A stretch of 64,000 nt of DNA from assembly GCA_964640125.1 (NCBI GenBank), contig CAZXGG010000001.1, positions 94,445 through 158,444 of the forward strand, given 5' to 3'. This DNA is from an uncultured Rikenellaceae bacterium. Lineage in GTDB: Bacteria > Bacteroidota > Bacteroidia > Bacteroidales > VadinHA17. Below the pieces are notes generated by a model that saw nothing but the letters and a program-made list of their open reading frames with translations, did no database searches and was not told the DNA's origin. This document shows, piece by piece, positions 6,292 through 63,638 of this stretch. The number at the start of each line of letters is the position of its first letter. Position 1 is the first letter of the stretch. A program made the translations under genes and the position numbers.

Positions 6292-6302
6292 ACAGGGAAT
6301 CA

Positions 6303-7136: not shown

Positions 7137-7140
7137 AACC

Positions 7141-39890: not shown

Positions 39891-42800
39891 TTATTTAATT
39901 ACCACGGGGAAATCATGTCCCCGTGAGAACGTATAGGGGTATTGAGCCTGTCCCTTGTATATCTTTGAAAGGGCAGGCACCTGATCATCGAGAAACGATT
40001 TCAGTTCATAGATGGTGACCTTCCCGTCTTTTGGGGCTCCGTCAGCGCTGCCGTTCAATGCTTGCAGGATAACGTAGGTAAAAAGACCATGGCCAAGACT
40101 TCCCACTTCGGTTGCAAACTGTTCGCTACCGGCAGCGGCAAGCACATGGACCCCGGAACTTCGGGACATCTGTGCCAGTGCTTTCTCCTCCATGGCTCCC
40201 CGTTGGGCCAGAAGCTCGGTCGATCCACCCGATTGACAGGCATCGAGCACAACCAGTTGCTTTAATGCCTTGATGTTTTTGAATTTTTCCTGCATATCCC
40301 CGGCATAAATGGATCCCTTGATCAGTTTATCCATCTGATACAAGCTTACACTTTCGGTCGGAATAAAAAAGAATTTATTTTCCACCATGCTTCCGTGTCC
40401 GGCATAATAGAAGAAAAAAACATCCTCGGGATTGATTTTCACGGACAGGGTATCCAGCGCACTCAAAATATTTTCCCGGGTCGCTTCTTTATCATAAAGT
40501 TCGATTAGTTCGATTCGCTTGAACAGTTTTTGAGCACGCTCTCCAACAAGTTTTGCAAATGCCCGTGCATCTGCTTTTGCATAGTTTAGTTCAAGCTGGG
40601 GATTTTCATATTTATTGATCCCGATCGCGATGACGTAACAGATGGCGGTACTTTCCAGTCCTTTGTAATGGAGGATGATCTCTTCGGGCCGGGATTCAAT
40701 CCTTCCGTCGCTGAATGCCGATAGTGAAAGAATATTTTCTCCGGGGATGAGGCTAACCGTGTAGTTCTTCATGATCGACTGGCCTTCTCTCCCAGACCTT
40801 CCCAGGCCGCTGTTGTCAACGGGAAGGCTTTTCCCGTTATGCAACAGTTTTACCTCATTAATGCCCCCTCCCGTGTTGGTAATTTTTGCAAAGATTTTAA
40901 CGTCGCTGTTTTCCATTTCAGTACCGGATTTTGGGGTGATGATGGAAACAACGGGTGGGGGTGATTCTTCCAGTTTATTCAGGAGGTTGACGGGTTCTTC
41001 GATCAGCCCGCGGTTCCGGTATACTTCCTGCAGTAATCCGGGATGGTAAAACTCTTCAAAAAACTGATCGATGTTATACGTGGTGGTTCCCCTGACAAAG
41101 AAAATTGATTTTCTGGCTCCTTCCGAAGCATCGAAAAATCCCTCTTTTGTTTTGACCAACCAGTCCGATTCACCGAGAAAAATCTGGGTCAGTAATTCAG
41201 ATCCTGTTTCCAGGTCCCAGGTTTTAATGGTTCCGTCATGACTTCCGGTAATCAGGAATTTTCCATCCGGACTGATCTGCACTGAACTTACGGTGCCATT
41301 ATGGCCGGTAAAGGTCCGGATAACCTTTCCGGTTTCCGCATTCCATAATTTTGCCGTGTTATCATCACTTCCCGTAACAATGAATTTTCCGGTTTTATCA
41401 AAGTTCACGGCATGGATACGGGCGGAATGGCCCCTGAATTTTTGTACCTGTAACCCGGTGGCTATATCCCATAGCTTAACCATCCCGTCGAAACTTCCCG
41501 ACAGCATGTACTTCCCGTCGGGACTCATCCGAATGGTTGTTACGATCTGCGTATGCCCGATGAATTCCCGGATTTCTTCTCCGGTGTCGATTTCAAACAA
41601 CCTCAGTTTTTTAGGATTTTCACGGGTTGGAAGGACAGCTGAAACGACATATAATCCGTTTCGGGTAAAGCGGACGGCATACGGTGTTAAACTGGGAATG
41701 GATTGGACCAGGTCACCCGCTTCAAGATCCCATACCCGTGTTCTTCCGTCCCAGCTGCCTGTAGCCAGGGATGTACCATCTGAACTGAAAGCAACAGTAA
41801 AAACCGGGATGTTGGATGTGCGATCGGGAAGTGTATATAACAATTCTCCGGAAGAGACATTCCAGATGCGTGCCGTACCATCCACACTGCCGGTGGCCAG
41901 ATACTTCCCGTCCGGGCTGAAATCAAGGGAGATGACCATGCCTTCGTGTCCCCGGTAAGTCTGAACCACCCTGCCGGTTGAAAAATCCATCAGTTTAGCA
42001 TTGTTCCCGGTTTTCCCGACTGCGATGTATTGCCCATCCGGACTCAACCGGACTTCATTGATAAAGGCAATCCAGTACATATAACCGTCACTCAGAACGG
42101 CTTCATCCACATCATTTAAAAATCCTCTTAGGGTAGTGAAATTCTTCCCTGATGGGATTTCCCATATCGAGGCTGTCCTGTCTTCGCTTCCCGTAAGGAG
42201 AAAATTCCCGGCAGGAGATGGTTTCAGATCCGTAACATCCCTGAGGTGGCCCTCGATGGTCGTCACCGGCTTTCCGGTTCGTGCATTGAAGATGGTTACC
42301 ACCTTATAATAGGATGAGACGATGTACTTTCCATCCGGGGAATAATAAGCCCCACCCTCCCGGTTACTCCTGCCATCCATCGGCCTGATTTTTTTACCCG
42401 ACTCAATATTCCAGGTATGGATGGAATCGTAATTTGAGATGAATTCGGTTTCATCCGGGCTAAAACTGGCAGAAATAATGCATGAGGTACAGGAGGAGCG
42501 GTCACCCTTGAATTTTTTCATTTCCTTTCCCGACTGGAAATCAAAAAGGATTACGGTTCGATCATTGCTGCCAACCAGTAACCGGGTGCCGTCACGGCTG
42601 ATCTCTAACGAACCGGCTGACGGATAGGTGAAGTTTTTCTGCATGGTGATATCCTGAGGCTCCGGGATGAATCGCCTGATCTCCTTGCCGGTGGAAAGAT
42701 CCCAAAGGATGGCATGGTTCCGTTCTGTTCCTGTAATCAGGTTAGCTCCCGAGGTAAACGCAGCACAAAAAATATCATCATCGGGAAGTACGATTGTCCG

Positions 42801-43157
42801 GATCAGCCGGCTGGTTTCTGTCTCCCAAAGTTTAAGTGAATAATCCTGGTCCACGGAAGCAATGAGTTTTCCATCCAGGCTAAAGGATAACTGCCTGGAT
42901 TCCCCAACACTACCGAGGTATGAACGGATCTCCCGTCCGCTGGCAGCATGCCATAGCTTGATGGTCTTATCATTACTGCCTGTGGCAGCAAATTCCCCAT
43001 CCGGACTGTATGCAACAGCGGTTACTGCTGCATAGTGCCCGGTCTGTATAACGGTTTCTATAGTCTGTTCCTGTGCAGTGAGTCTTGCAGACTGCAGGAC
43101 AAAACATGCAGTGACACAAAGGAATGTAAGGGTAGATGAGGTTCTTTTCAAATCCAT
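39891..43157 (-). CDS. Exported WD40-repeat (about 14 blades) protein with C-terminal caspase/peptidase C14 domain
   Basis: Signal peptide MDLKRTSSTLTFLCVTACFVLQSARLTA. There are 14 units of the type SPDGK..ATGS.D.T.K.W. The last 252 aa (nt 39894-40649) carry the catalytic His in YYAGHG (codon 40395-40397) and Cys in LDACQSGG (codon 40236-40238). Confidence 0.9.
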   Translation of the reverse strand: MDLKRTSSTLTFLCVTACFVLQSARLTAQEQTIETVIQTGHYAAVTAVAYSPDGEFAATGSNDKTIKLWHAASGREIRSYLGSVGESRQLSFSLDGKLIASVDQDYSLKLWETETSRLIRTIVLPDDDIFCAAFTSGANLITGTERNHAILWDLSTGKEIRRFIPEPQDITMQKNFTYPSAGSLEISRDGTRLLVGSNDRTVILFDFQSGKEMKKFKGDRSSCTSCIISASFSPDETEFISNYDSIHTWNIESGKKIRPMDGRSNREGGAYYSPDGKYIVSSYYKVVTIFNARTGKPVTTIEGHLRDVTDLKPSPAGNFLLTGSEDRTASIWEIPSGKNFTTLRGFLNDVDEAVLSDGYMYWIAFINEVRLSPDGQYIAVGKTGNNAKLMDFSTGRVVQTYRGHEGMVISLDFSPDGKYLATGSVDGTARIWNVSSGELLYTLPDRTSNIPVFTVAFSSDGTSLATGSWDGRTRVWDLEAGDLVQSIPSLTPYAVRFTRNGLYVVSAVLPTRENPKKLRLFEIDTGEEIREFIGHTQIVTTIRMSPDGKYMLSGSFDGMVKLWDIATGLQVQKFRGHSARIHAVNFDKTGKFIVTGSDDNTAKLWNAETGKVIRTFTGHNGTVSSVQISPDGKFLITGSHDGTIKTWDLETGSELLTQIFLGESDWLVKTKEGFFDASEGARKSIFFVRGTTTYNIDQFFEEFYHPGLLQEVYRNRGLIEEPVNLLNKLEESPPPVVSIITPKSGTEMENSDVKIFAKITNTGGGINEVKLLHNGKSLPVDNSGLGRSGREGQSIMKNYTVSLIPGENILSLSAFSDGRIESRPEEIILHYKGLESTAICYVIAIGINKYENPQLELNYAKADARAFAKLVGERAQKLFKRIELIELYDKEATRENILSALDTLSVKINPEDVFFFYYAGHGSMVENKFFFIPTESVSLYQMDKLIKGSIYAGDMQEKFKNIKALKQLVVLDACQSGGSTELLAQRGAMEEKALAQMSRSSGVHVLAAAGSEQFATEVGSLGHGLFTYVILQALNGSADGAPKDGKVTIYELKSFLDDQVPALSKIYKGQAQYPYTFSRGHDFPVVIK

Positions 43158-46541: not shown

Positions 46542-49500
46542 TCACCCTCTTTTGCGCATCTTTGCCTTTTCAGACCAGTCGATGATCCTGCGCAGAAGAT
46601 CGTATATCAGGAAAAAATAGAAGAGTAGACTCCACAACCAGATGACGATAATGTTGAACCAGAACGTATCCATCGTTTTGTCACCAATGATTTTCACCGG
46701 GGCATAGAAATGAGCCCTTCCGGCTTTTGATATCGGATCCATGTATACGGGCATCGCCTTCCTGACCAGTTGATGGTCCAATTCCGGCAGGAACGGAATT
46801 TCGCCACGGTTCAGAAGCAATTCATTCAGCTTGTCATTCTCGTGTTTATCTTTTAGTCTGTTTAGCGCATCTTTACTTCCCATGGAATCAACCAGGTGAT
46901 TGTATTTTTCATCCTTGAACCGGGTTGCCTTCTCTCCCGTTTCCTGGTAGTATTCTTTGACCCCTAACAGGTAGGATTTGGTAAGGTCGAATAGTTCGCT
47001 GGAGTAGGTTTCAATAGTCAGATCCGCTATCCGCTCAAAGAGCGGGAATGATTGAAAATCATGCAATTTTTGAAGCTCATTCCGGACTACCTCAAGGTTG
47101 GAAATTGCCTTTTCCCGGTTCAGATTGTTCTGGATGTTCCGGTCAGCCTCATTCAATTTGGAGATTACTTCCGGAATAAGATCACGGGAATTAAAGAGAG
47201 CATTCTTTTCTTCTTTTTCAAGGTCAAAGAAATTGCGCTGGTATTTATTTTTTTTGAACTGTTCCACGGCAATGGCTTCATACGCCCATCGTGAGGTCAT
47301 CAGTTCGCCGATTGTTGGGACAAAAACCGGATTTCGGAATACGTTGTGCAACCTGTCGAATTTAACTATCACTCCGCTAAAGAGAAGCTGGGGAACCAGG
47401 ATGAATGGAATGATGATATAGATTGCTACCACTGAATTCAGACCGGAGGAGAGGTTCAATCCGATCATATTTGCCATGCAGGAGGCGGAAAAGAGAACCA
47501 TCCAGTAGGGGAAGGTCATCCCTTTGATTTCCAGAATAGTATTCCCGATCAGGACAAAACTGAAGGTTTGGATCGCCGAGATCAGGAAGAGGATCAGGAT
47601 TTTTGAATGCAGATAGCTGAGCCGGCTCAGGTGAAGGAATGATTCCCGTTTCAGGATTTTTTGATCCCGGATGATCTCTTCGGCACTCACAGTCAATCCC
47701 ATGAACAGGGCTACCACAACTGCCATGAAGATATAGGCGGGAAGGTTTTCATTTTCCCTGAACACATAAGATAGGGTACCTGAATGATCGCTGATGTATT
47801 TGGTAAAATAGCCGATGATCAGGGCAAGTAGGGGCGCTTCCAGGAAATTGATCAGCATGTATTGCCGGTTGGAAAGTTTAGACAAGACATTGCGGGTGAT
47901 GAAGATCCAGAACTGAGACAACGGGTTGGGTATACTAAAGATGCGTGGAGGCAAGGGGTTTTTTTGATGCTTTTCCTGTTCTTCTGATTCGAAGTTTTCC
48001 AGGTAAAGCTGATACCATTCTCTGGGGGAGACCTTTCTCTTTTCCACCAGTTTCCCGTATTCATCCACCTCACGTGCTTCAACAATCTGGAGGATCTGTT
48101 CTGGCACTACATTTCCGCAGGAAAGACATTGTCCCTCTGTTGCATTTACATAATTGCTGGCCGATTTAAAATAGACCAGTGCGTCAATGGGATTCCCCTT
48201 GTAGATGGGATATCCCCCTTTATCCAGGATTAGTATCCTATCAAACAGTTTAAAAATATCGGAATAGGGCTGGTGGATGTTGATGATGACCAGTTTCCCC
48301 TTGAGTGTTTGCTCTTTCAGGAGCAGCATTACCTTTTCTGAATCCAGGGAAGAGAGTCCTGAAGTGGGTTCATCCACAAACAATATGGAGGGCTCGCGGA
48401 TTAGTTCCAGTGCGATATTTAATCGTTTTCGCTGCCCCCCACTGATGAATTTATTCAGGGGTGATCCGACCTTCAGATTCCGGCTCTCATACAGTTCAAG
48501 ATCCTTCAGTATTTTGTTGATCCGTTTCAGTACTTCCGCTTTTGATAGCTTGCTGAAACAGAGCTTGGCATTATAATAAAGATTCTGGAACACGGTAAGT
48601 TCCTCTATGAGCAGATCATCCTGGGGAACAAATCCGATCATCCCCTCCAGTTTTTCTTTCTCCGCGTATAGATCGTACCCGTTAATCAGGATTCTTCCCC
48701 GCTGTGGCTGCATGTTACCATTCAAGATGTTCAGCAGGGTTGATTTGCCCACCCCGCTTCCTCCCAGAATCCCTATCAAATTACCTGACTCTTCGGTAAA
48801 TGAAAACCGGTGTATTCCATGATCACTCCTTTTGAACTTGAATTCTATATCCAGGGCTTGAAAAACAATCTTTTCATGATCCCTTTCGCGAAAAAAACAG
48901 TTCGAAACGTCACTGTAATAAATGGGCCTGATCTTCGGACTGGTAATGAGCGACCCCTGATCAAGCAAGTGGATCCTTTCCGGTGGGATATAATGCCCGT
49001 TTAAAAGCAGGGTGCTGCTTCCCAGGTAGCGGAAAATAAAGGTGTTGGTACTGGTATGATGAAGGATGATGATCATCCCGTCAAGGTCACTTTTTTGAAT
49101 ATGGTGGATCCCCTCCACCGGGGGATCCGGTGCTTTGCTGATAACAAGCAGCTTATCTTTTTGAATATCATGTGACAGGGGATCCAGGATGTAGCTTTTT
49201 GTATTGTGAAGCTCCGTTTCGGTTATGTTGAAGCAACGGGCAACCATCTTAATAAAACCCAGTTCACGATCTGTCATTACCTCATCTTCATTGATGAATT
49301 CAACGAGTCGCATAAAAACAATGAACTTCTCTCTCTGCAGGAGATTCTTGTTTATTTCGGTACAAAAAGAATGAATGCTGTCAGTATTTAGCGGATCTAT
49401 TCCGGCAGTTAATGCTGCTCCCTCTTTCACCAGCTGAGGATGATAGGTGGCAATATACTTCTCAAACAGGGTAATGTATTTGTTAATGAGCTGGGCACTC

Positions 49501-49619
49501 AGGTGTTGTTGAAGGTAAAAATGGACAATCTCTATTGCTCTGGATGAGAGACCATCTTTACTCACATTGGCAATCATAGCAAACAGCTGCAGTAAAGCAT
49601 TAAGAATGGATTCATTCAT
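46542..49619 (-). CDS. ABC transporter ATP-binding/permease fusion (ABCG/ABC-2 type) with TerB-like and FHA-like N-terminal modules
   Basis: Walker A GGSGVGKST, signature ISGGQRKR and Walker B ILFVDEPTSGLS. An ABC-2-type TM domain follows (aa about 585-750). A helical region of about 200 aa precedes a last TM helix (FWFNIIVIWLWSLLFYFFLIY) and a basic tail. Confidence 0.85.
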   Translation of the reverse strand: MNESILNALLQLFAMIANVSKDGLSSRAIEIVHFYLQQHLSAQLINKYITLFEKYIATYHPQLVKEGAALTAGIDPLNTDSIHSFCTEINKNLLQREKFIVFMRLVEFINEDEVMTDRELGFIKMVARCFNITETELHNTKSYILDPLSHDIQKDKLLVISKAPDPPVEGIHHIQKSDLDGMIIILHHTSTNTFIFRYLGSSTLLLNGHYIPPERIHLLDQGSLITSPKIRPIYYSDVSNCFFRERDHEKIVFQALDIEFKFKRSDHGIHRFSFTEESGNLIGILGGSGVGKSTLLNILNGNMQPQRGRILINGYDLYAEKEKLEGMIGFVPQDDLLIEELTVFQNLYYNAKLCFSKLSKAEVLKRINKILKDLELYESRNLKVGSPLNKFISGGQRKRLNIALELIREPSILFVDEPTSGLSSLDSEKVMLLLKEQTLKGKLVIINIHQPYSDIFKLFDRILILDKGGYPIYKGNPIDALVYFKSASNYVNATEGQCLSCGNVVPEQILQIVEAREVDEYGKLVEKRKVSPREWYQLYLENFESEEQEKHQKNPLPPRIFSIPNPLSQFWIFITRNVLSKLSNRQYMLINFLEAPLLALIIGYFTKYISDHSGTLSYVFRENENLPAYIFMAVVVALFMGLTVSAEEIIRDQKILKRESFLHLSRLSYLHSKILILFLISAIQTFSFVLIGNTILEIKGMTFPYWMVLFSASCMANMIGLNLSSGLNSVVAIYIIIPFILVPQLLFSGVIVKFDRLHNVFRNPVFVPTIGELMTSRWAYEAIAVEQFKKNKYQRNFFDLEKEEKNALFNSRDLIPEVISKLNEADRNIQNNLNREKAISNLEVVRNELQKLHDFQSFPLFERIADLTIETYSSELFDLTKSYLLGVKEYYQETGEKATRFKDEKYNHLVDSMGSKDALNRLKDKHENDKLNELLLNRGEIPFLPELDHQLVRKAMPVYMDPISKAGRAHFYAPVKIIGDKTMDTFWFNIIVIWLWSLLFYFFLIYDLLRRIIDWSEKAKMRKRG

Positions 49620-53215: not shown

Positions 53216-53950
53216 TTATCTTCCTTTGACATGGAATAATTTTGTGTTTTTTTTCAGAACATGAATGGTGAACCAGATTACAGCTGCTGCAGCTGTGAGT
53301 ACAATCCACATTAGGGAAGGATACGGCTTCTTCGTCATAAAAAAATTTCTGAACAGATCAAGAAAGGTAAAGGAGATGAAGATATTGATAAATCCGTGAT
53401 ACTCCCGTTTGATCACATTACGCCAGGAAAAATACAATTGGCTGGATTGCCAATTTCTGAATCGCGGAAAGAAAGCCGGCGTATCAATTGACCAATCCAG
53501 AAATGATTTTCCAAACTTTTCCCGTAGGAATATCTCTTCGGCAAACATGATCCGTTCATAATAGAGCCAGAAGAGTAAAATAAACAGCAGGAGGCACCAT
53601 AGTGACTCAAGAAAGAGGGCAACACCCAGCCAGATGATCAAATTTCCAAGATATAAGGGATGCCTGACAAGGGAATAAATGCCGGTGGTATTCAACATTT
53701 CAGCCCTCTGCCTTTTGATGTTTCTACCCGAAGTGCCTCTCGGGGTCTGTCCAACAGTAATGATACGGATACCCAGCCCCAGTAGGCTTACACCCAGGTA
53801 TATCAGATCCCTGTATGGACTGGGATGATAGCCGGAAAAATCTTTCAGTGCATAATAGATTAGCGCTAAACAGAGGATAAAAACCGGCAGGTATCCCCGC
53901 CTTTTGAATAACCAGTTACCGCTTCTGTTGAATTCTTCGATGAGAGCCAT
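53216..53950 (-). CDS. ICMT/PEMT-like membrane methyltransferase family protein
   Basis: Polytopic. GIYSLVRHPLYLGNLI and EE.FLREKFG motifs are typical of isoprenylcysteine carboxyl methyltransferase-like proteins. Confidence 0.75.
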   Translation of the reverse strand: MALIEEFNRSGNWLFKRRGYLPVFILCLALIYYALKDFSGYHPSPYRDLIYLGVSLLGLGIRIITVGQTPRGTSGRNIKRQRAEMLNTTGIYSLVRHPLYLGNLIIWLGVALFLESLWCLLLFILLFWLYYERIMFAEEIFLREKFGKSFLDWSIDTPAFFPRFRNWQSSQLYFSWRNVIKREYHGFINIFISFTFLDLFRNFFMTKKPYPSLMWIVLTAAAAVIWFTIHVLKKNTKLFHVKGR

Positions 53951-54061: not shown

Positions 54062-55249
54062 TTAAAAATTCCATTTCAGGCGAATAAAACCAAAACCCAG
54101 ATCTTCTGTTTGATCGGTAAACTTCCCGTTGAAATATTGAGCGATGAGGGAAATGGAGAGGTTGTCTTTGAGCGATAGATCGAGGGTTGGACCGGCAAAA
54201 ACGGCATCCATGGAAGGGAAGTAAATAACGGCGAGTGTTCCGTTAAACAGGGGTGTGAATGGATAGGATATCTGCATGCCGATCGAATAGTCGGTGAATG
54301 AAAGGGTCTTGACCGAGAGCGGCATGAAGTAAAATTCACTGAAATTGAGGATGGAGAGATCATAACCATTGTACAGAAACTCTGCCAGGAGGTAAATGGA
54401 GTTGTTAAAAGTATAATCTGCGGATATCCCCAGGATCATAAAACCGGAAGTGTCGGAAAACTCCTTTATCGGATGAAAATAGGTAACTTCTCCCCGGAAA
54501 CCGGCTCCCTTAATATCACCCGACCAACCGATACCTGCTACATAATCCTCACTGTTCAGCATACCTCCCAACAGTTGAATGTCGTAATTCCATTTGTTGA
54601 ACCGGAATAATCCGGCAGCCGTAATGTCATTGTTGTGATTCACTTTAACCGCTGCTTCTGCCAGGGACGAGACACCGGTAAAGTACTGGATACGAAGCGC
54701 ATCACTTCCGGGTTTCTCCACATAATCAAAATCGAAGAAGGAATAGGCATTGAAAATATCATTGGGGTTCCACATCATGTTCTGTCCCCAGTTTATCCGT
54801 TGCCTGCCTGCCCGAACCTGTAGATTCCCTTTTGAAAAATCGATCCACAACCGGTCAATGGTGGAATGAAAAATATAGGATTTTCCCTTAAGAAGGTTGG
54901 TTGATAGATCAAACCACCCCTGCTCATTGTTGATCAATTTTGCATAGTATGGGATGGTTTTTATCGATTCACCATAGATGAAGCGGTTTCTGACTTCGAT
55001 GTTTGTTCGGAAGGATTCGGAAATGTACCATTTCATGCTGAGCCGGTTATGGATCGTATTATCGGTGATCCAGGAACCGTCCCAGTATGGGATCATGGCA
55101 CTCTGCATATTGGACAGGTATCCGTTAAACTCGATGGCTCCGTTTCCCTCCTGGGATAAAAGAGGAAAAACAGACAGCAGGAAAAGAGAAACCGATAGTC
55201 TAAACCGTTGATATACCATGCGTTTTTTACTGGGTAACGTCCGAGACAA
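54062..55249 (-). CDS. Outer-membrane beta-barrel protein (alginate-export/porin-like), last gene of the ABC operon
   Basis: Signal peptide, RAGRQRINWGQ motif, alternating-residue strands and an aromatic C-terminus ...FIRLKWNF. Alternative start ATG 55219 lies 7 nt after the ATPase stop. Confidence 0.6.
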   Translation of the reverse strand: MSRTLPSKKRMVYQRFRLSVSLFLLSVFPLLSQEGNGAIEFNGYLSNMQSAMIPYWDGSWITDNTIHNRLSMKWYISESFRTNIEVRNRFIYGESIKTIPYYAKLINNEQGWFDLSTNLLKGKSYIFHSTIDRLWIDFSKGNLQVRAGRQRINWGQNMMWNPNDIFNAYSFFDFDYVEKPGSDALRIQYFTGVSSLAEAAVKVNHNNDITAAGLFRFNKWNYDIQLLGGMLNSEDYVAGIGWSGDIKGAGFRGEVTYFHPIKEFSDTSGFMILGISADYTFNNSIYLLAEFLYNGYDLSILNFSEFYFMPLSVKTLSFTDYSIGMQISYPFTPLFNGTLAVIYFPSMDAVFAGPTLDLSLKDNLSISLIAQYFNGKFTDQTEDLGFGFIRLKWNF

Positions 55250-55910
55250 TTTTGCCGTCTTCCATCGTAATCACACGGTGGGCTTTTTTAACAACCCGGG
55301 CATCATGAGTGGAAAAAATGAAGGTAATATTCTCCTCCCTGTTCAATTTTTCCATGATGTCCAGCAGGTTTTCGGTAGATTTGGAATCCAGATTGGCGGT
55401 CGGTTCGTCAGCGAGGATAAATTTGGGCTTAGAAGCCAATGCTCGTGCTACAGCCACGCGCTGTTGCTGACCACCGGACAGCTTGTTGGGACGGCTGTTT
55501 ATTCGATCAGCCAACCCGACTGCCTGCAATAGTTCTTTTGTTCGGGCATCCCGTTCGCGTTTTGACCTTCCCTGAAGGTGCATGATGAATTCCACATTCT
55601 CTTTGGCAGTAAGTACCGGGATCAGATTGTAGGATTGAAATACAAAGCCGATGTGGTTCATCCTGAAATTGATCAGTTTCCTGGAACGGAGCTTCCAAAT
55701 ATCCACTCCGTCAACGATCACCTCCCCGGAGGTAGGACTATCAAGGCCTCCCAGGAGATTGAGAAACGTTGTTTTGCCTGATCCTGAGGGTCCTACTATG
55801 GCGGCAAATTCTCCCTTTTCAAAATTCAGGTAAATGCCGTTAACGGCTTTCACTTCAAGCCCGGCTCCATCGTAAATCTTGGTCAGGTTCTTAATCTCAA
55901 TAATACTCAT
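55227..55910 (-). CDS. ABC transporter ATP-binding protein (LolD/MacB-type)
   Basis: Walker A GPSGSGKTT, signature LSGGQQQRVAVARAL and Walker B FILADEPT. Confidence 0.9.
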   Translation of the reverse strand: MSIIEIKNLTKIYDGAGLEVKAVNGIYLNFEKGEFAAIVGPSGSGKTTFLNLLGGLDSPTSGEVIVDGVDIWKLRSRKLINFRMNHIGFVFQSYNLIPVLTAKENVEFIMHLQGRSKRERDARTKELLQAVGLADRINSRPNKLSGGQQQRVAVARALASKPKFILADEPTANLDSKSTENLLDIMEKLNREENITFIFSTHDARVVKKAHRVITMEDGKIVSDVTQ

Positions 55911-55937
55911 GTCGATCTATTTAAAAAAGTTACCGAT

Positions 55938-57155
55938 TTATTCGATCCGTAATGCTTCTGCCGGATCATATTTTAATGCCTTGTATGCCGGATAGATGGC
56001 TGCAATAATACCGGTGAACAGCACCATGATGATCACCGTGATCATGAGATTAACATCCATACTGGTAAAGACCCGGGGATCATACCCAAGCTGGGAATAA
56101 CCCTCGGCCCAGAGCGACATATCAATGGCATGTGTTTCAAAATATTTTGATAAGCCACTTCCTGCCAGCGTCCCCACAACCCCGCCAACCAGCGTAAGCA
56201 ATACCGTTTCAAGAACAATCATGTTGAATACCCGCTGTTTGTTCATACCGATTGCCATTAACATACCCAGTTCTTTCACCCGCTCCAGGACAACCATCAA
56301 CATCGTATTGATGATCCCGAATAGCAGGGCAAACAGAATGATGATGATGAAGATGTACATGTAAAGATCCATTACTTCCGTTAAATACCCCATTTCCGGA
56401 CTCAGCTCTTTCCAGTTCAGGATCTCCAAATCCCCATTCATGGCAACAATCTGATGCTGAACCGTATCGACCAGTTCGTTGTTTTCTACCAGTATGGCAA
56501 TTTCATGCCCTGCATGGTCAGGTAATTCAGCAAGACGGGCAATATCACCACGCCTGACAAAAACGGTTGTTTCATCATAGGTTGAATTCGGTGTTTTATA
56601 AATACCAACAACCCGGAATGCTCCGCCGGCAATGTTGTTGTCCAGATCCTGAAGCGTGATGACTACCTTGGAACGAAGCTTAACTTTCAGTTTTTCGGCC
56701 AGTTTATTTCCAATCAGTACAGGATTGCTCCGGATGCCGTTAAAGTATTCACCTTCAATGATGTTCTCCTCCATATCGGTTACCCCTTTTTCATCTTCGG
56801 GATCCACACCAACAATCTTAACACCGGATGCGGTTTCAGCAGAGGATATCATGGATTGGATGACAATCCGGTTGCTGACACCTTTAACACCCGGGATATC
56901 CGCTATTTTCCGGGTCAGCTCAGCGCCCGTTGAGATGTAATTTCCCAGTTCCATAGTGGACCTGAAATCGGGATGGTGAATCTGAATGTGCGACAGTTCA
57001 TTGGAAATCACCTGTTCGATCCGCTGATTCATCATACCGGTAAAAAATGCAGTGGAGAACACACCGGCAGAAATGCCAAGGGTAATGGCTATAATTACCA
57101 CGGTGCTTCTAACCTTATTGCGCCAGATGTTTCTCCAGGATATCGACCATATCAT
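55938..57155 (-). CDS. ABC transporter permease, FtsX/MacB type (4 TM, large periplasmic domain)
   Basis: N-terminus WRNIWRNKVRS, then TM1. A periplasmic domain of about 220 aa follows, then three C-terminal TMs (FtsX domain). Confidence 0.85.
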   Translation of the reverse strand: MIWSISWRNIWRNKVRSTVVIIAITLGISAGVFSTAFFTGMMNQRIEQVISNELSHIQIHHPDFRSTMELGNYISTGAELTRKIADIPGVKGVSNRIVIQSMISSAETASGVKIVGVDPEDEKGVTDMEENIIEGEYFNGIRSNPVLIGNKLAEKLKVKLRSKVVITLQDLDNNIAGGAFRVVGIYKTPNSTYDETTVFVRRGDIARLAELPDHAGHEIAILVENNELVDTVQHQIVAMNGDLEILNWKELSPEMGYLTEVMDLYMYIFIIIILFALLFGIINTMLMVVLERVKELGMLMAIGMNKQRVFNMIVLETVLLTLVGGVVGTLAGSGLSKYFETHAIDMSLWAEGYSQLGYDPRVFTSMDVNLMITVIIMVLFTGIIAAIYPAYKALKYDPAEALRIE

Positions 57156-57194
57156 AATTACACGTTTTAACTGTTTGTTAATTGATCCATTCTG

Positions 57195-58415
57195 TTATGC
57201 CCTGAGTGCCTGATTAACCCGTAAGATACCGGCCCGGTATACCGGGAATATGGCAATCACGGCAGTTATGATGAATATGGCAATGACCTGGTTGTAAAAG
57301 ACCGAAGGCAACCATGAGAATAACAGAAGGGGCTCGATTCCCATCTGGATCATGGTTGCAGCAGCCTCTCCGGTTAATCGTATCGGATGATGAATGAACC
57401 AGGTGATAATCGGAACACTTCCTGCAAAACCAGCCAGCGTGCCAATTAAACCAATCAAAATGGTTTCGAAAAAGAGGATTACCCCAAGCTTCGTACGCTG
57501 CATACCGATGGCAACCATTACCCCCATTTCCCTTCTCCTCTCTGAAAGCATCATCAGGATGGTCCCGAAAATACCAAATCCAACCAGAATATAAAGGATG
57601 GCCTTCATAACAACTCCCCCGGCCCTGTCTGCCTCAATGAGCTGAACCACCTCGGGGTGCATCTCATTCCAGGTCATCAGACGATACGGAGAACCGATCT
57701 TTTCCTGTAGCCTTTCACGCACCCCGGGCATTGCATAATGATCCGTAACCATGATCACGAGAGCTGTAAGAAGCGATTCGGCTGAATAGAATTCCCTGCA
57801 ATTGTCTATGTCCATATAGATGAGCTCCTGGTTGATCTCGGGATTGGGGAATTCCAGAATGCCACGAATGGGGTATTTGCCTGCTGCACTCACCCCATGA
57901 TAGCCCTGACCCAGTAACACAAGGGTGTCTGATACACCAAGACCCAAACGGTTGATCAACCCGGACACTACCAGCAATCCGTCATCCCCGGGTTCCAGAT
58001 AATGCCCTGAGGTAATCCATTTGCTGACTTCGGTGATACGGTCTTCTCCTTCAGGATCAACACCCATAATCATGGCTCCCTTTGTGGTCTCTTCGGATGA
58101 GGCAAGTGCAAACGATACAAACCGGGGTGCGATTTGTGTAACCCCCTCAGTTTGTTTAACAATATTGATCAGTGAGTCCGTTTCCGGGAATGAATTGTTG
58201 ATGGTCTTATCTTCCCAATAATCTTCCTGGTGGATCTGCATGTAACCGGAATAAAACTTCACCCAGTTATCCACCATGGATGTGTATGACCCTTCCTGCA
58301 TGGAAGACATCACGGTGGAAATAATGACCGCAAAAAATACGGAGGAGACAGTGATTAAGGTTCTTCGCTTGTTCCTCCATAAGTTTTTCCATGCAATCTT
58401 CAAGTTTTTCATCAC
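57195..58415 (-). CDS. ABC transporter permease, FtsX/MacB type (paralog of the downstream permease)
   Basis: N-terminus WKNLWRNKRRT. Same 1+3 TM architecture with a large periplasmic domain. Confidence 0.85.
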   Translation of the reverse strand: MMKNLKIAWKNLWRNKRRTLITVSSVFFAVIISTVMSSMQEGSYTSMVDNWVKFYSGYMQIHQEDYWEDKTINNSFPETDSLINIVKQTEGVTQIAPRFVSFALASSEETTKGAMIMGVDPEGEDRITEVSKWITSGHYLEPGDDGLLVVSGLINRLGLGVSDTLVLLGQGYHGVSAAGKYPIRGILEFPNPEINQELIYMDIDNCREFYSAESLLTALVIMVTDHYAMPGVRERLQEKIGSPYRLMTWNEMHPEVVQLIEADRAGGVVMKAILYILVGFGIFGTILMMLSERRREMGVMVAIGMQRTKLGVILFFETILIGLIGTLAGFAGSVPIITWFIHHPIRLTGEAAATMIQMGIEPLLLFSWLPSVFYNQVIAIFIITAVIAIFPVYRAGILRVNQALRA

Positions 58416-58494
58416 AACTTTGAATGGTTTAAGTTTACATTAAGCTACTAGGGTATATACCAACTTTAATCTGTCTATACCAAATTTACAAAAG

Positions 58495-59265
58495 CTACCG
58501 GACCCGCCGCATGTTCTGAATGGAGAAAAAATCATCCTCCATGGGGACGTTGAATGTCACATGGGTGAACTCCATCGTTGTTTTTTGCCCCTCCTTGTCA
58601 ACCGGAATGATCTCAAAATAGGTGGGGATAACACGATCTCCTACGTTTTTTATTTTTGATAGGATTTCACGATTTACCAGATACCCGTCTTCATCGTAAT
58701 ATTCATTCTTCAGGGTGAAATACTCATCCCTGGAGATCCAGGATATAATCTTCCCCCATACAACCGGAGCATCCTCGTGTGGTTCCAATTGAATCTTATA
58801 ACAGTCGTACTCTTCAATCGTTTCAGTTCCAATAAGGGTGTGGCTGTAATCTTCTACGATTGATGATTCCTTCACCAGATCATCGTTGGTCATATCCGAT
58901 CCCATCCACGACTGCATCATCATCGATGGGGGGATCTTGATCATGCGTTCGATAGAAGGAACCCAATTCCACATCTCCTTCTCACGCTTCAAAAAGACCT
59001 GACCACTCTCTTTCGCGGGTTCTGTGATATAAATCAGGGATAAGTCAGTTCCTTTTGACCATGCTTTGAAGGAAAGGGTTCGATCCCATTTGGGGCGTAT
59101 GATCTTCATGGTCATTTCCGCATAACTGGAATTTCCACGCATCAGCTGATTCGCTCTGTCGATAATCTCCTTTGCTGTGGGATTATCCTGAGCCTGCAAC
59201 AGTCCCTTGCCGGGAAGTACTGTTCCAATTAGAAATACCAGTAAAAAAAAGTTGATCTTTTTCAT
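58495..59265 (-). CDS. Periplasmic LolA-like outer-membrane lipoprotein-sorting family protein (TP0789-like)
   Basis: Signal peptide MKKINFFLLVFLIGTVLPG. A body of about 230 aa is rich in beta strands. Sits immediately upstream of the FtsX/ABC genes. ATG 59265 abuts the tetR stop; the ORF track start at 59289 overlaps tetR. Confidence 0.6.
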   Translation of the reverse strand: MKKINFFLLVFLIGTVLPGKGLLQAQDNPTAKEIIDRANQLMRGNSSYAEMTMKIIRPKWDRTLSFKAWSKGTDLSLIYITEPAKESGQVFLKREKEMWNWVPSIERMIKIPPSMMMQSWMGSDMTNDDLVKESSIVEDYSHTLIGTETIEEYDCYKIQLEPHEDAPVVWGKIISWISRDEYFTLKNEYYDEDGYLVNREILSKIKNVGDRVIPTYFEIIPVDKEGQKTTMEFTHVTFNVPMEDDFFSIQNMRRVR

Positions 59266-59266
59266 C

Positions 59267-59848
59267 TTATTCATCTGCATAGAGTTCAATTATTTTTTGT
59301 TTAACCGATTCAAGTGGAAAACGTTCAGGGTTCATAACATAATGAATCCCGATACCATCCAGAAGTGCAACGAATAACCTTGCCGAAGCTTTTGGATTTT
59401 CATCTCCCAGCTGTTCAAAATAGCGTTCAACCATGCCGAAAAGTGATTCGATCGTCTCCTGAAACACCTTATCGACCAGTTTCAATACAGGCGGTTGTGT
59501 CAAAATGCCAAAATATAGCTTCCAGAATTCCACGTTTTCTTTCAGAATCCGGAAGGTCTCTTCAATGAAATACTTAATCTCCTGCCTGGTAAGCATACCA
59601 TCATGATCCGGATCAAAATAGGTCATGATCTCTTCAAGGCCCTTGGCAATGATGACGCGAATTAACTCTTCCTTGCTCTCAAAGTAATTGTACAAAAGCC
59701 CCTTGGAGATACCTGCTTTGTTCGCAATGTCCTTAATCGAAGTACTGTGAAAACCCTCATTAGCAAAAAGCTCAAGGGCCGTATCCATGATCAGCAGCTT
59801 TTTCCCTTCACGGATCGCTTCAAATTGTTCGGATGTGCGCGGCGACAT
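59267..59848 (-). CDS. TetR/AcrR family transcriptional regulator
   Basis: N-terminal HTH ALELFANEGFHSTSIKDIANKAGISKGLLYNYF. 193 aa. Confidence 0.9.
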   Translation of the reverse strand: MSPRTSEQFEAIREGKKLLIMDTALELFANEGFHSTSIKDIANKAGISKGLLYNYFESKEELIRVIIAKGLEEIMTYFDPDHDGMLTRQEIKYFIEETFRILKENVEFWKLYFGILTQPPVLKLVDKVFQETIESLFGMVERYFEQLGDENPKASARLFVALLDGIGIHYVMNPERFPLESVKQKIIELYADE

Positions 59849-59862
59849 ATTGTTTTATTTTA

Positions 59863-59880
59863 TGACTGAACGCACAGTCA
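59863..59880. promoter_or_regulatory. Candidate TetR operator 1: TGACTG-aacgca-CAGTCA
   Basis: Perfect 6-bp inverted arms, 15 nt upstream of the tetR ATG. Shares the 14-nt direct repeat TTTATGACTGAACG with operator 2. Confidence 0.5.
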
Positions 59881-59921: not shown

Positions 59922-59939
59922 TGACTGAACGTTTGGTCA
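59922..59939. promoter_or_regulatory. Candidate TetR operator 2: TGACTG-aacgtt-TGGTCA
   Basis: Same left arm and flank as operator 1, with one mismatch in the right arm. Overlaps the -7 box. Confidence 0.45.
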
Positions 59940-59969
59940 AAGATAAAGCAATCGGTATTAAAATCCAAA
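59938..59969 (-). promoter_or_regulatory. Bacteroidota sigma-A-type promoter: TTTG-N20-TATCTTTG
   Basis: The minus strand reads TTTG gattttaataccgattgctt TATCTTTG. This matches the -33 TTTG / -7 TAnnTTTG consensus, about 90 nt upstream of the tetR ATG. Confidence 0.55.
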
Positions 59970-60975: not shown

Positions 60976-61461
60976 ATGACTGTAGAGGAATACAACCGGA
61001 GCGTCGATCAATTCTCTGATGGGCTTTACCGTTTTCTCCTGAATAACATTAAGGATGCGGAGAAAGCACGTGATATCATTCAGGATACCTATGAAAAGTT
61101 GTGGAGGAAGGTAGAGACGGTTTCCAGTGAAAAGGTAAAGTCCTATCTGTTTACAACGGCATACCATACGATGATTGATCTACTGCGGAAAGAGAAATGG
61201 AGTACTGATTTCAATACTGTAAACCGGGACAGCTATTCTCATACGGACCAATATTCAGATTTGAATGAGATTTTACAGGAAGCAATAGAGCGGCTACCTG
61301 GGGATCAACGATCCGTGATCATGCTGCGGGATTACGAAGGATATTCCTATCAGGAGATAGCAGAGATTACCGGTCTGACTGAGTCACAGGTTAAGGTTTA
61401 TATATACCGTGGCAGGCTGTTTTTGAAGAACTACATTGGTAAAATTGAATCGGTCATTTAG
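60976..61461 (+). CDS. ECF-type RNA polymerase sigma-70 family factor
   Basis: 161 aa. Region 2 reads ARDIIQDTYEKLW and region 4 HTH reads YSYQEIAEITGLTESQVKVYIYRGR. Confidence 0.85.
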   Translation: MTVEEYNRSVDQFSDGLYRFLLNNIKDAEKARDIIQDTYEKLWRKVETVSSEKVKSYLFTTAYHTMIDLLRKEKWSTDFNTVNRDSYSHTDQYSDLNEILQEAIERLPGDQRSVIMLRDYEGYSYQEIAEITGLTESQVKVYIYRGRLFLKNYIGKIESVI

Positions 61462-61470
61462 TTTCAACGG

Positions 61471-62592
61471 ATGAACATCACAAGGGAAAATTACGAAATC
61501 TTTTTTCTGGATTACCTGGAGGGATCTCTTGATTCTTCCATGATGGAAGAGATGAATGCTTTCCTTGAGAGCAATCCCGATCTTAAGGAGGAGCTGGAGG
61601 GGTTTGAACAGGTGTCTCTTCAGGCTGATCCTATCATATTCAGGGATAAAGAGCAATTGAAAAAGATCGATTCAAAACGAGACGATATAGGGGACAAGCA
61701 CTTTGATCACCTCTGTATTGCAAAACTTGAAGGAGACTTGAATAGCGCTGAGGAGAAGGCACTGGATCAATTACTGATTGACCAACCACAGCGGAAAAAA
61801 GAACTGGATCTCTTTTTCAAAACTAAACTTCAGCCGTTACCGGTGATTTTCCCGGATAAGCGATTATTGAAAAGAAAAGCACCAGCTTTCCGGCGTAAAT
61901 ATGCCTGGTATTCTATTTCTGCTGCAGCATCAGTCATCCTGATGCTGTCATTTTTGCTGTTGTTGAGCCGATTCCGGAATCCGCAGGAAGAGGGCATTGC
62001 TATTATTTCACCGATGAATGAAAGCAGCGATGCCACGGTTTTAGAAGAGCCACCCATCATAGAAGAAGATATTCCAGCTTTAGTTGATCAAGTTGTTGAA
62101 CGAATGGTTCCCACAGTAGAGAGTGGAATAGTGAAAACGGATGATGTCGTTGCGATGGATATTCCTGAGACAACAATGGAACAGAAAGGTGAAAACATTA
62201 CCGTAAATTATCCGGATATCGTCGCTGATCGTAGAACCAATCTGGTACTTTTAAGCAGGCGTGAATTTGAACAGATCACTACCTCTCCATACACTACCAT
62301 AGCGACCACGGAGATCATGGAGCCAGAGAATGAGGATGAAGAAGAGTATCTCACCTTACGCGAAGTAGTTGCCCGGAGACTGAGAAGTGCCGTGTCTGTG
62401 AAAGAACCTGGCGCAACCGGACAGGAAGATAAAATAACGTTCCTGGATATTGCAGATGCCAGTGTACGGGGCATTAGCCGAATTCCCGGTATTGACATGA
62501 AATTGGATCGGTATTATGATCAAGATGGTCAGTTGACCTCCTATGCCTTTACCTCTAAATCCCTCTCTTTTTCGCACGAAGTAAAAAAGTAG
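61471..62592 (+). CDS. Putative single-pass anti-sigma factor with duplicated N-terminal module
   Basis: Starts 9 nt after the sigma gene. One TM helix (YAWYSISAAASVILMLSFLLLLS). Two copies of a module of about 60 aa lie exactly 70 aa apart (..YLEGSL..IIFRDK..LKK and ..KLEGDL..VIFPDK..LKR). Confidence 0.5.
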   Translation: MNITRENYEIFFLDYLEGSLDSSMMEEMNAFLESNPDLKEELEGFEQVSLQADPIIFRDKEQLKKIDSKRDDIGDKHFDHLCIAKLEGDLNSAEEKALDQLLIDQPQRKKELDLFFKTKLQPLPVIFPDKRLLKRKAPAFRRKYAWYSISAAASVILMLSFLLLLSRFRNPQEEGIAIISPMNESSDATVLEEPPIIEEDIPALVDQVVERMVPTVESGIVKTDDVVAMDIPETTMEQKGENITVNYPDIVADRRTNLVLLSRREFEQITTSPYTTIATTEIMEPENEDEEEYLTLREVVARRLRSAVSVKEPGATGQEDKITFLDIADASVRGISRIPGIDMKLDRYYDQDGQLTSYAFTSKSLSFSHEVKK

Positions 62593-62681
62593 CACTCATT
62601 GTAACATTTGAAACAGTGATACGTCCTACGGTCAAATGCAGGTTTATCCTGCAGCATGTTTAATTCACAAATTAACACACA

Positions 62682-63638
62682 ATGAAAAAATTTGCACTAC
62701 TACTACTGATCCCTGCGGTTGTTTGGACTTCATTTGGACAAACGGATACGGGAAAAGTTACTGTGAAGGAGAATGATGTGATCCTGATTGAGGGGGACAT
62801 TCAAGGAACATCCATTAACGTTGGATCGGATGATATACTGACTTACGAATCAAAGGATGATACCATTCAGGTGAAACTTGGCAGGCGAGGGATTAAAATC
62901 ATGGAAACAGAGGATGGAACTTCGATTGATATCATTGATCTGGATGAGCGTGACGATGACCGTTCAGATAAGAGATGGAAACGCTTCAGGGGGCATTGGA
63001 TGGGCGTGGAGCTGGGGTTGAATAATTTGCTTACCAGTGATTATAACATGGATTATCCTGAAGAGTCCAGGTTTATGGAACTGAATACCGGGAAATCGTG
63101 GAATTTTAACATCAATTTTCTACAGTATAGCCTTGGTTTTGGTACGGACAAGGTAGGCCTGGTGACGGGACTGGGGTTGGAAATGAACAATTACCGGTTT
63201 GATCATTCCCTTTCCATCATGAAAGAGGATGGGGTCATTGTTGCCGACAGCTCCTATTTGCTTAATCCGAATGTGGGCAACGTTGAAAAATCGAAACTGC
63301 ACACGGCCTATTTGACCCTGCCATTGCTTCTTGAATTTCAGATCCCTGCGGGCAGGAATAATCACCGGATTCATTTTTCTGCAGGTGCCATCGGAGGGGT
63401 AAAACTATGGTCACCAACGAAAGTTGTATATAAAGACCAGGATGGGAACAAAGAGAAAAATAAAGTGAAGGGGAATGATTACAATCTGTCTCCTTTGAGA
63501 TACGGTGTCACGGCCCGCATTGGTTACAGGGCTTTAAATGTGTATGCAAACTTAAACCTGACGCCCCTGTTTGAAAAGAATAAGGGGCCCGAACTCTATC
63601 CTTTTTCCATCGGGTTAATTGTCCATTTTTTAAACTAA
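62682..63638 (+). CDS. Outer-membrane beta-barrel family protein (porin/PorT-like) with N-terminal extra domain
   Basis: Signal peptide. The C-terminal 200 aa or so has alternating hydrophobic strands (YGVTARIGYRALNVYANLNLTPLF). Confidence 0.5.
   Translation: MKKFALLLLIPAVVWTSFGQTDTGKVTVKENDVILIEGDIQGTSINVGSDDILTYESKDDTIQVKLGRRGIKIMETEDGTSIDIIDLDERDDDRSDKRWKRFRGHWMGVELGLNNLLTSDYNMDYPEESRFMELNTGKSWNFNINFLQYSLGFGTDKVGLVTGLGLEMNNYRFDHSLSIMKEDGVIVADSSYLLNPNVGNVEKSKLHTAYLTLPLLLEFQIPAGRNNHRIHFSAGAIGGVKLWSPTKVVYKDQDGNKEKNKVKGNDYNLSPLRYGVTARIGYRALNVYANLNLTPLFEKNKGPELYPFSIGLIVHFLN

Follow-up and report, generated by a model that had tools for sequence, protein, structure and literature searches.

By what route hydrophobic molecules pass the periplasm, lipopolysaccharide and the classical lipoproteins aside, is still an open question, especially in Bacteroidota. 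LolA1 and LolB1 are present in all Bacteroidota examined (PMC11885536); in the same study the role of LolA3 was stated as unknown, its deletion in Flavobacterium johnsoniae giving no phenotype in the reported assays. The LolA3 protein of Porphyromonas gingivalis (LolA3-PG, structure 9TP6) has neither the conserved arginine of LolA nor the leucine of LolB, and shows no binding to LolB-PG. Here we describe six genes on the minus strand of a 64,000-nt stretch of contig CAZXGG010000001.1 (positions 94,445 to 158,444, all of it called the window below) from an uncultured Bacteroidales bacterium. They encode a TetR-family repressor, a LolA-superfamily carrier, two permeases and an ATPase of an ATP-binding cassette (ABC) transporter, and a predicted outer-membrane beta-barrel. 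On balance, we favour the reading that this is an accessory, TetR-repressed export cassette acting as a private Lol pathway, with neither a membrane fusion protein (MFP) nor TolC.

Related carriers and barrels are known beside other engines. In P. gingivalis the PG1178-81 genes (porin, LolA-like protein, MMPL transporter and TetR) are among those most strongly induced by haem or iron limitation, and their products were still termed an uncharacterised transport system in 2026. DUF1302 and DUF1329 proteins of Proteobacteria are co-fit with an RND transporter and a BNR protein. AmeABCD is associated with monoterpene tolerance and dye efflux, and P. putida DUF1302/DUF1329 mutants do not grow on Tween 20 or butyl stearate. 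In a 2026 paper DUF1302 itself is described as a barrel of 18 strands whose top fold matches are Occ and AlgE, at a template modelling score (TM-score) of ∼0.55, and AlphaFold-Multimer models of DUF1302 with DUF1329 reach an interface predicted TM-score of 0.84 (PMC13499233). In the literature we found no paper describing the present cassette.

The six open reading frames (ORFs) are tightly packed between 54062 and 59848 (Table 1). The tetR stop codon occupies 59269-59267, and the carrier gene has two candidate ATGs: one at 59274, which overlaps tetR by 8 nt and is the start chosen in JGI gene calls, and one at 59265, 1 nt past the tetR stop. Gaps of 79 nt (58495 to 58415), 39 nt (57195 to 57155) and 27 nt (55938 to 55910) separate carrier from permease A, permease A from permease B, and permease B from ATPase. 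With a TTG at 55249 as its start, the barrel ORF shares 23 nt with the ATPase gene; with the ATG at 55219 it begins 7 nt past that gene, and the ATG is the likely start because the homologues are 385 aa long. We could reproduce from the sequence every ORF and gap that an earlier, sequence-only reading had listed for these genes. Its naming of the parts (TetR, LolA-like protein, two paralogous FtsX permeases, ATPase, signal-peptide barrel) agrees with Pfam, NCBIfam and topology, and the motifs RAGRQRINWGQ and C-terminal RLKWNF that it had noted are both found in the last protein.

Table 1. Features of the cassette and its immediate surroundings (positions in the window)
Feature	Position	Strand	Basis or remark
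O1, operator-like 18-bp palindrome	59922..59939	.	TGACCAAACGTTCAGTCA on gene strand
O2, operator-like 18-bp palindrome	59863..59880	.	TGACTGTGCGTTCAGTCA on gene strand; 15 nt upstream of tetR ATG
TetR-family repressor, 193 aa, FadR-like fold	59267..59848	-	TetR_N; AlphaFold2 and Foldseek
Canonical EF-hand loop DPDHDGMLTRQE, TetR residues 79-90	59579..59614	-	EF-hand_7/EF-hand_1 just below cut-off; loop pattern
Periplasmic LolA-superfamily carrier, 259 aa	58495..59274	-	PF17131 (LolA_like/TP_0789-like); signal peptide
Permease A, four-transmembrane FtsX-type with MacB_PCD periplasmic domain, 406 aa	57195..58415	-	Pfam, LolF match
Permease B, paralogue of permease A, 405 aa	55938..57155	-	Pfam, LolF match
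LolD-like ABC ATPase, 227 aa, separate polypeptide	55227..55910	-	ABC_tran, TIGR02211
Predicted outer-membrane beta-barrel, ∼18-20 strands, 385 aa	54062..55219	-	AlphaFold2/Foldseek; signal peptide, C-terminal Phe
LmtA-like integral-membrane methyltransferase (PEMT/ICMT superfamily), possible accessory gene	53216..53950	-	TIGR04571; 111 nt downstream

The transporter had been called MacB-type in the sequence-only reading; the comparisons give a Lol-type machine instead. Both permeases have MacB_PCD and FtsX domains (Pfam), four hydrophobic segments and a loop of ∼230 aa between the first two transmembrane segments, and they are paralogous to each other (24% identity, E 2e-37). In phmmer searches against the PDB, permease A matched LolF at 1e-13 and permease B at 1e-23, and both matched LolC/LolE across the full length, whereas similarity to MacB was confined to the C-terminal transmembrane part (segments 3-4 in permease B). 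The ATPase (ABC_tran, 121 bits; Walker A GPSGSGKT, signature LSGGQ) has LolD (TIGR02211) as its top NCBIfam model, with 239.1 bits against a cut-off of 307.75. Two four-transmembrane FtsX permeases with periplasmic (Sabre/Porter) domains and a separate ATPase make up the architecture of LolCDE. The curated models are still not reached: the two permeases score 88.5 and 132.6 bits with TIGR02212 (lolCE; cut-off 362), 57 and 73 with the LolE model NF008357 (439), and 30 and 65 with the LolC model NF008076 (473). We rejected a MacAB-TolC identity, the scores with the MacB model NF007826 being 42 and 20 bits against a cut-off of 966, the ATPase being unfused, and no MFP or TolC gene being found among 136 flanking genes.

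With the carrier, PF17131 (LolA_like, renamed TP_0789-like in a newer Pfam release) scores 187.3 bits against a gathering threshold of 30. The protein has a single N-terminal hydrophobic segment and a signal peptide, with no lipobox cysteine in the signal region. Its PDB relatives are 4Z48, 3BUU, 3BK5 and the LolA3-PG structure 9TP6 (E 2e-14). The LolA1_Flavo model gives 17 bits against a cut-off of 100; LolA3_fam (NF053579) gives 19.4 bits, on an N-terminal stretch only, against a cut-off of 83, which leaves the carrier outside that equivalog. Judged by these matches, the carrier is a LolA3-type paralogue and not LolA1. Elsewhere, PF17131 genes adjoin either an MMPL/RND transporter or an FtsX-type ABC.

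The product of the last ORF, 395 aa in the sequence-only reading and 385 aa from the ATG, is predicted to form a barrel. Its AlphaFold2 model, built on a 26-sequence alignment, is all-beta with ∼18-20 strands, a mean predicted local distance difference test (pLDDT) score of 80 and a predicted TM-score of 0.71. Foldseek matches in the PDB were outer-membrane channels only, the best being 18-strand proteins: the major outer-membrane protein MOMP of Campylobacter jejuni at 1e-13, then chitoporins, Occ channels and AlgE at ∼1e-9 to 1e-10 (TM-scores 0.5-0.6, ∼10% identity). The segment G138-W144 is invariant across the 26 homologues. In the RAGRQRINWG region, DUF1302 (PF06980) scores 19.5 bits over 49 residues against a gathering threshold of 23.2, and weak DUF1302 matches occur in 13 of the 26 homologues (best 2e-6). 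The protein may thus be a distant DUF1302 relative, by a weak link, in an otherwise unannotated family of 620 clusters (50% identity, E ≤1e-30) whose named members are all 'hypothetical'. A modelled barrel of ∼18 strands, fold matches of the Occ/AlgE class and a gene beside that of a LolA-superfamily protein are what is seen in the DUF1302 class.

The term 'AlgE-like' that had been applied to this protein stands as far as the generic 18-strand fold goes; the weak sequence link is to DUF1302 instead. No Alginate_exp (PF13372) match was found at E ≤0.01 in the 26 family members, nor any alg genes nearby. AlgE ranked only tenth by fold (TM-score 0.57, 9% identity), and membership of the AlgE family was rejected on these grounds. 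Also not counted as members of the barrel family were hypothetical proteins of ∼475 aa in cassettes of Burkholderia gladioli and Aliiroseovarius, for which hhalign gave only insignificant, motif-level similarity at a probability of ∼3%.

To see how constant the cassette is, one genome per species (185,579 species genomes) was scanned for barrel genes; at least 596 loci were found and the best 80 were analysed. Fifty-eight of these extend 5.5 kb or more upstream of the barrel gene. In 57 of the 58, the carrier, two or three permeases and the ATPase lie directly upstream of the barrel gene on the same strand, an adjacency that persists down to 43% barrel identity, and tetR stands at the head of the cassette in 44. 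Where tetR is absent, the flanks hold unrelated housekeeping genes or other regulators. The sole exception is an orphan barrel gene (locus L052, 7920-9086) with no ABC or carrier genes, placed behind a histidine kinase and response regulator pair. This recurring gene order is far from chance. The best 80 hits come mostly from environmental metagenome-assembled genomes (MAGs) of Bacteroidales; the same five genes occur in Persicobacter and in Vibrio campbellii. In megaplasmid copies of Ralstonia pickettii (L087) and Burkholderia thailandensis (L086) the permeases are fused (∼830 aa) and the order is carrier-ATPase-permease-barrel, with the barrel still adjacent at 26-33% identity. The barrel thus does travel with the ABC genes, also in Proteobacteria, and TetR does so in most of the 58 loci.

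Some loci vary in their permeases. Seven (L012, L013, L018, L023, L031, L035 and L039) have three permease genes, the extra one being a paralogue of permease A, and another clade has permeases of ∼470 aa with a longer periplasmic domain.

No MFP (HlyD-type) or TolC (OEP) domain was detected in the scanned window ORFs of at least 150 aa, and no such family appeared among the clustered neighbour ORFs or the 136 immediate flanking genes in a Pfam census of the 80 loci. The earlier remark that the window has no MFP or TolC gene is borne out for the ORFs scanned, and no such pair recurs beside the cassette in relatives.

The repressor matches TetR_N at 65.5 bits. Its AlphaFold2 model (pLDDT 92.7) has acyl-CoA-binding FadR/FasR regulators as top Foldseek matches (TM-score 0.72), among them Bacillus subtilis FadR with and without stearoyl-CoA (0.72), Bacillus halodurans FadR and Mycobacterium tuberculosis FasR; the top NCBIfam model is likewise Bacillus FadR, at a score under its cut-off. 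Taken together, the nearest folds and the best NCBIfam match give a weak hint that the inducer may bear an acyl chain.

Upstream of tetR, the operator-like sites O1 and O2 are imperfect palindromes set 59 nt apart, start to start. At 59938-59945, TATCTTTG matches TAnnTTTG, which we take to be the Bacteroidota -7 promoter motif, and overlaps O1 by 2 nt. Of 44 related loci, 24 have the pattern TGAC-N10-GTCA upstream of tetR, where 0.012 occurrences per 220 nt would be expected; its conserved consensus is TGACyrNNCGTTCAGTCA. The paired layout, at a spacing of 58-66 nt, recurs in L005, L012, L013, L014, L023 and L027. A TetR_N helix-turn-helix domain together with palindromes in its own promoter region (predicted operators) is what an autoregulated repressor of the TetR family has. 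Conserved predicted operators ahead of the operon agree with the previous suggestion that TetR control marks an inducible rather than a housekeeping function.

A second feature of the repressor is an EF-hand loop. EF-hand_7 (26.9 bits) and EF-hand_1 (22.4 bits) both fall slightly under their cut-offs. The 12 residues of the loop fall where one modelled helix (59-75) gives way to the next (88-104), and a helix-loop-helix is seen around them in the AlphaFold2 model. Of 46 cassette TetRs, 37 retain the pattern, as do 102 of the 120 nearest homologues; in a 30-sequence alignment the sole change among the exceptions is Gly6 to Ser. In the searchable literature we found no precedent for an EF-hand loop within a TetR-family repressor. 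As a possible bacterial repressor responsive to Ca2+, the protein would merit attention in its own right.

Could the cassette simply be the housekeeping Lol system of this genome? All NCBIfam Lol equivalog scores of its genes are below cut-off, and the window holds at 6303-7136 a LolB1 equivalog (DUF4292; 139 bits against a cut-off of 50). That LolB1 lies elsewhere in the window, that LolA1 and LolB1 occur in all Bacteroidota examined, and that the cassette is under TetR control together argue that it is probably an accessory system. We therefore rejected a housekeeping identity on the indirect grounds of the equivalog scores and the LolB1 gene, within the window. The prospect that these genes are the sole orthologue of LolCDE/LolA, raised earlier as a counter-case, is made unlikely by the scores, the LolA3-type carrier, LolB1 and the predicted operators, all of them indirect and confined to the window. 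The LolB1 gene itself belongs to a tight plus-strand cluster (4558-8340) with genes for a tetratricopeptide repeat protein and an M23/EnvC-like peptidase.

The genes beside the cassette offer some hints to its cargo. Recurrent neighbours encode a PEMT/ICMT-type methyltransferase (21 loci), an extracytoplasmic function (ECF) sigma factor (13), response regulators (12) and GH16 proteins (11), and PEMT/ICMT/DUF1295 is the commonest flanking family. In the window, the methyltransferase gene downstream of the barrel gene encodes a product that matches LmtA (TIGR04571) over its full length at 230 bits against a cut-off of 325. In 21 of 71 loci a homologue is found no more than 600 nt downstream of the barrel gene, often at 39-46 nt. 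LmtA of Leptospira is a lipid A 1-phosphate O-methyltransferase. In L031 a gene for a DUF1295 enzyme stands ahead of the cassette. The Ralstonia and Burkholderia copies have ICMT genes at a distance of a few kb; these copies are followed by a gene for an ABC1/UbiB-family kinase and sit in a copper-type metal-resistance neighbourhood (P-type ATPase, YHS, cupredoxin). In Aquimarina hainanensis a TetR-less cassette (L051, 156-13260) lies, on the same strand, among six FabH-like β-ketoacyl-ACP synthase III (KAS III) paralogues and a 3-hydroxyacyl-CoA dehydrogenase, a setting suggestive of a dedicated fatty-acid-derived product in that species. The FadR-like TetR, the LmtA/ICMT-type methyltransferase, the Aquimarina KAS III genes and the UbiB-family kinase, none of them decisive, hint at a cargo derived from fatty acids. 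Our best guess is accordingly a fatty-acid-derived lipid or amphiphile rather than a lipoprotein.

We propose the following working scheme, in which the physical hand-overs, the direction of transport and the cargo are what we infer. TetR dimers would hold the operon off from the two 18-bp palindromes over the promoter and 5′ region; here the sites and their conservation are observed, and the binding is predicted. An acyl-chain ligand, as the FadR-like fold suggests, would free the repressor, and the EF-hand loop, placed between helices 4 and 5, may let Ca2+ tune the response. A heterodimer of permeases A and B with two copies of the LolD-like ATPase would then form a mechanotransmission machine of type VII (Lol/MacB class) and, by homology to LolCDE/LolF, pull a molecule of hydrophobic or amphiphilic nature out of the inner membrane's outer leaflet. 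This molecule would be passed to the soluble PF17131 carrier, for which solved structures of homologues predict a hydrophobic cavity of LolA type. The loaded carrier would dock on the dedicated barrel, the cargo being inserted in the outer membrane or released outside; docking is suggested by the strict synteny and by the published DUF1302-DUF1329 multimer models. The barrel model, the synteny and the MFP/TolC census thus support the core of the sequence-only reading, namely an inducible extractor, carrier and barrel for a hydrophobic cargo, with the function itself predicted.

The same parts could make a dedicated lipoprotein route, in which a second Lol system extracts a subset of lipoproteins (for example surface-exposed ones) with its own carrier, and the barrel serves as insertase or flippase. 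The closest relatives of the permeases and ATPase, LolF, LolC, LolE and LolD, would suit it, as would the LolA-superfamily carrier; the same idea has been proposed for Borrelia BBJ23-29, and Bacteroidota are known to have an unidentified surface-lipoprotein route that does not depend on LolA or LolB (PMC11885536; PMC12889592). As the cassette was found in just part of Bacteroidota, it is a poor candidate for a general pathway of this kind. TetR control with FadR-like sensing fits small-molecule logic better, LolA3-PG has neither the LolA arginine nor a pairing with LolB, and no lipoprotein gene is conserved in the cassette. We consider a lipoprotein route unlikely.

Lipid traffic might also run the other way. 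The barrel would then let in a hydrophobic nutrient (fatty esters or hydrocarbons, for instance), the carrier would ferry it inward and the ABC would receive or release it at the inner membrane. Failure of the P. putida mutants to grow on Tween 20 or butyl stearate points in this direction, as does the presence of DUF1329/DUF1302 genes within aromatic and steroid catabolic islands, and a FadR-like regulator would suit a catabolic supply line. To our knowledge, however, all characterised type VII ABC transporters (FtsX/MacB/Lol) export or mechanotransmit, and we know of no importer among them. AmeABCD acts as an efflux and tolerance system, and no catabolic genes are conserved beside the cassette. 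Uptake therefore seems to us distinctly unlikely.

Metals supply a further alternative: the cassette might export a lipophilic metal chelator or remodel the envelope as a reaction to divalent cations. In P. gingivalis and Prevotella the sibling PG1178-81 operon is strongly induced when haem or iron is limiting, which speaks for it, along with the conserved EF-hand loop and the copper-type genes beside the Ralstonia and Burkholderia copies. Yet the iron response is known for the MMPL siblings only, the EF-hand loop points to Ca2+ and not to iron, the metal-resistance context is limited to two related megaplasmids, and neither chelator-biosynthesis genes nor TonB receptors are conserved beside the cassette, so that a metal-linked role has very little to recommend it. 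That the barrel is an unrelated porin adjacent by chance, and that the ABC and carrier do without it and deliver cargo to the periplasm or some other receptor, could draw on the orphan gene in L052 and on PF17131-MMPL pairs with no annotated adjoining barrel (Haliovirga, Pseudoalteromonas), but is hardly credible given very short or overlapping gaps, adjacency in 57 of 58 genomes down to 43% identity, and proteobacterial copies that keep the barrel at 26-33% despite a new order and a fused permease.

Several observations weigh against the private export pathway that we favour. Most loci have no biosynthetic genes nearby, and the cargo is unconstrained for that reason. The Tween 20 growth defect of the P. 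putida DUF1302/DUF1329 mutants fits uptake equally well. The TetR shares just 15-24% sequence identity with the FadR-like folds, which makes the resemblance a hint only. The alignment of the barrel family with true DUF1302 by hhalign is local (∼70 columns, E 1.7e-4, probability 50%). The hook by which LolC recruits LolA shows no clear conservation: with the hook defined as in Escherichia coli LolC, the hairpin aligned to the LolF hook region is 5 residues shorter in permease B and lacks flanking prolines. The transport role of the cassette is predicted from genes, folds and synteny.

A broader proposal goes beyond this locus, and we put it forward only tentatively, as something possible that we would not yet expect to hold. 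The cassette may exemplify a widespread third trans-envelope route, in which a Lol-class ABC (or MMPL) engine works with a PF17131 'LolA3' carrier and a private DUF1302-class barrel to bring a lipid or amphiphile to the outer membrane or across it, with no adaptor, TolC, Lpt bridge or LolB, and which is switched here by an unprecedented TetR with a FadR-like acyl pocket and an EF-hand Ca2+ site. If true, such a route would account for the orphan LolA3 paralogues of Bacteroidota. LolA3-type carriers would gain defined partners, an ATP-driven extractor and a dedicated barrel, and the cassette would link them to the haem/iron-regulated PG1178-81 and the Pseudomonas DUF1302/DUF1329 systems. Being compact, with five structural genes, one repressor and mapped operator-like sites, and present in cultured Aquimarina, Persicobacter, Vibrio, Ralstonia and Burkholderia, the cassette makes the hypothesis directly testable.

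The rest of the window is ordinary chromosome (gidA, uvrC, polA, peptidases), and the nearest MAGs in the genome scan carry the label Rikenellaceae. No RNA element was detected between 52000 and 62000 in an Rfam scan. A promoter and terminator consensus scan gave counts close to the shuffle expectation, with a consensus set that holds no Bacteroidota promoters. Divergent from the cassette, on the plus strand (60976-63638), are genes for an ECF sigma factor near the PG0214/GFO_1088 family, a 373-aa anti-sigma-like protein with no Pfam match and an OMP_b-brl_2 barrel; an ECF sigma gene lies divergently upstream of tetR in ∼20 of 80 loci, and in L095 and L096 too. Two large minus-strand genes stand further off. 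One (39891-43157) encodes a 1088-aa protein with many WD40 repeats, an unusual size for a bacterial WD40 protein. The other (46542-49619) encodes a 1025-aa fusion of an ABC ATPase with an ABC-2 membrane protein, has an N-terminal extension of ∼270 aa with no Pfam match, and adjoins the same genes in the close relatives L001-L003.

How does the cassette stand among known systems? With LolCDE-LolA(-LolB) it shares two four-transmembrane FtsX permeases with large periplasmic domains, a separate LolD-like ATPase, a soluble LolA-superfamily carrier and freedom from MFP and TolC; it differs in the LolA3-type PF17131 carrier, in a predicted barrel in place of the LolB lipoprotein and in TetR control. 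MacAB-TolC has the MacB_PCD and FtsX domains and the type VII ABC mechanism in common with it, but the cassette ATPase is unfused and there is neither a MacA-type adaptor nor TolC. The LolA2/LolB2 proteins of flexirubin clusters in F. johnsoniae (PMC11885536) set a precedent in Bacteroidota for LolA-superfamily paralogues that serve one particular lipid-like product, to which the Aquimarina copy of the cassette, inside a KAS III-rich lipid-synthesis cluster, may be compared; the flexirubin system has another LolA subfamily and a LolB-type acceptor, not a barrel, and lies within a pigment biosynthesis locus. The sequence-only reading had also named Treponema pallidum TP0786-0789 as an ABC transporter coupled to a LolA-like protein. 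This could not be confirmed: in the part of PMC8407342 available to us, TP0786 is modelled as LptB, and the transporter beside TP0789 is the RND protein TP0790.

Closer in the make-up of carrier and barrel are the operons of the PG1178-PG1181 type in Porphyromonas and Prevotella, of the same phylum, with a TetR, a PF17131 carrier (23% identity, E 7e-19) and then a DUF1302-type barrel. For the sequence comparison Prevotella nigrescens served as a proxy for P. gingivalis PG1178; its gene order is TetR, two ABC genes, MMPL, LolA-like, DUF1302. Their engine is a proton-driven MMPL/RND transporter accompanied by two type I ABC half-transporters, and their barrel, unlike ours, is a bona fide DUF1302 protein of 435 aa. 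The proteobacterial DUF1302/DUF1329/BNR/RND (HAE3) cassettes (AmeABCD of Castellaniella, Sama_1588-1591, and PP_0765/0766 with PP_2018/2019 of P. putida) likewise combine a DUF1302-class barrel, a LolA-superfamily protein and an inner-membrane transporter for hydrophobic compounds. They differ by their RND engine, an extra BNR/Ycf48-like protein, a DUF1329 carrier of ∼450 aa, a barrel of ∼540-600 aa and LuxR or AraC regulators. In Borrelia BBJ23-BBJ29, the subject of a 2026 computational proposal, a MacB/Lol-like type VII ABC, a LolA-like carrier and an outer-membrane barrel share one cluster and are again proposed to pull out a non-polar ligand and carry it to the outer membrane; that system is spirochaetal and plasmid-borne, with an Omp85/BamA-TamA barrel, a homodimeric permease, tetratricopeptide repeat chaperones and no TetR. 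As far as comparison of sequences can tell, the cassette described here would be of a known yet poorly understood kind, working like Lol while staying below every curated LolCDE/LolA threshold. With the DUF1302 systems it appears to share the carrier-plus-barrel module, and to differ from them by its ABC engine, its smaller and divergent barrel and its TetR switch.

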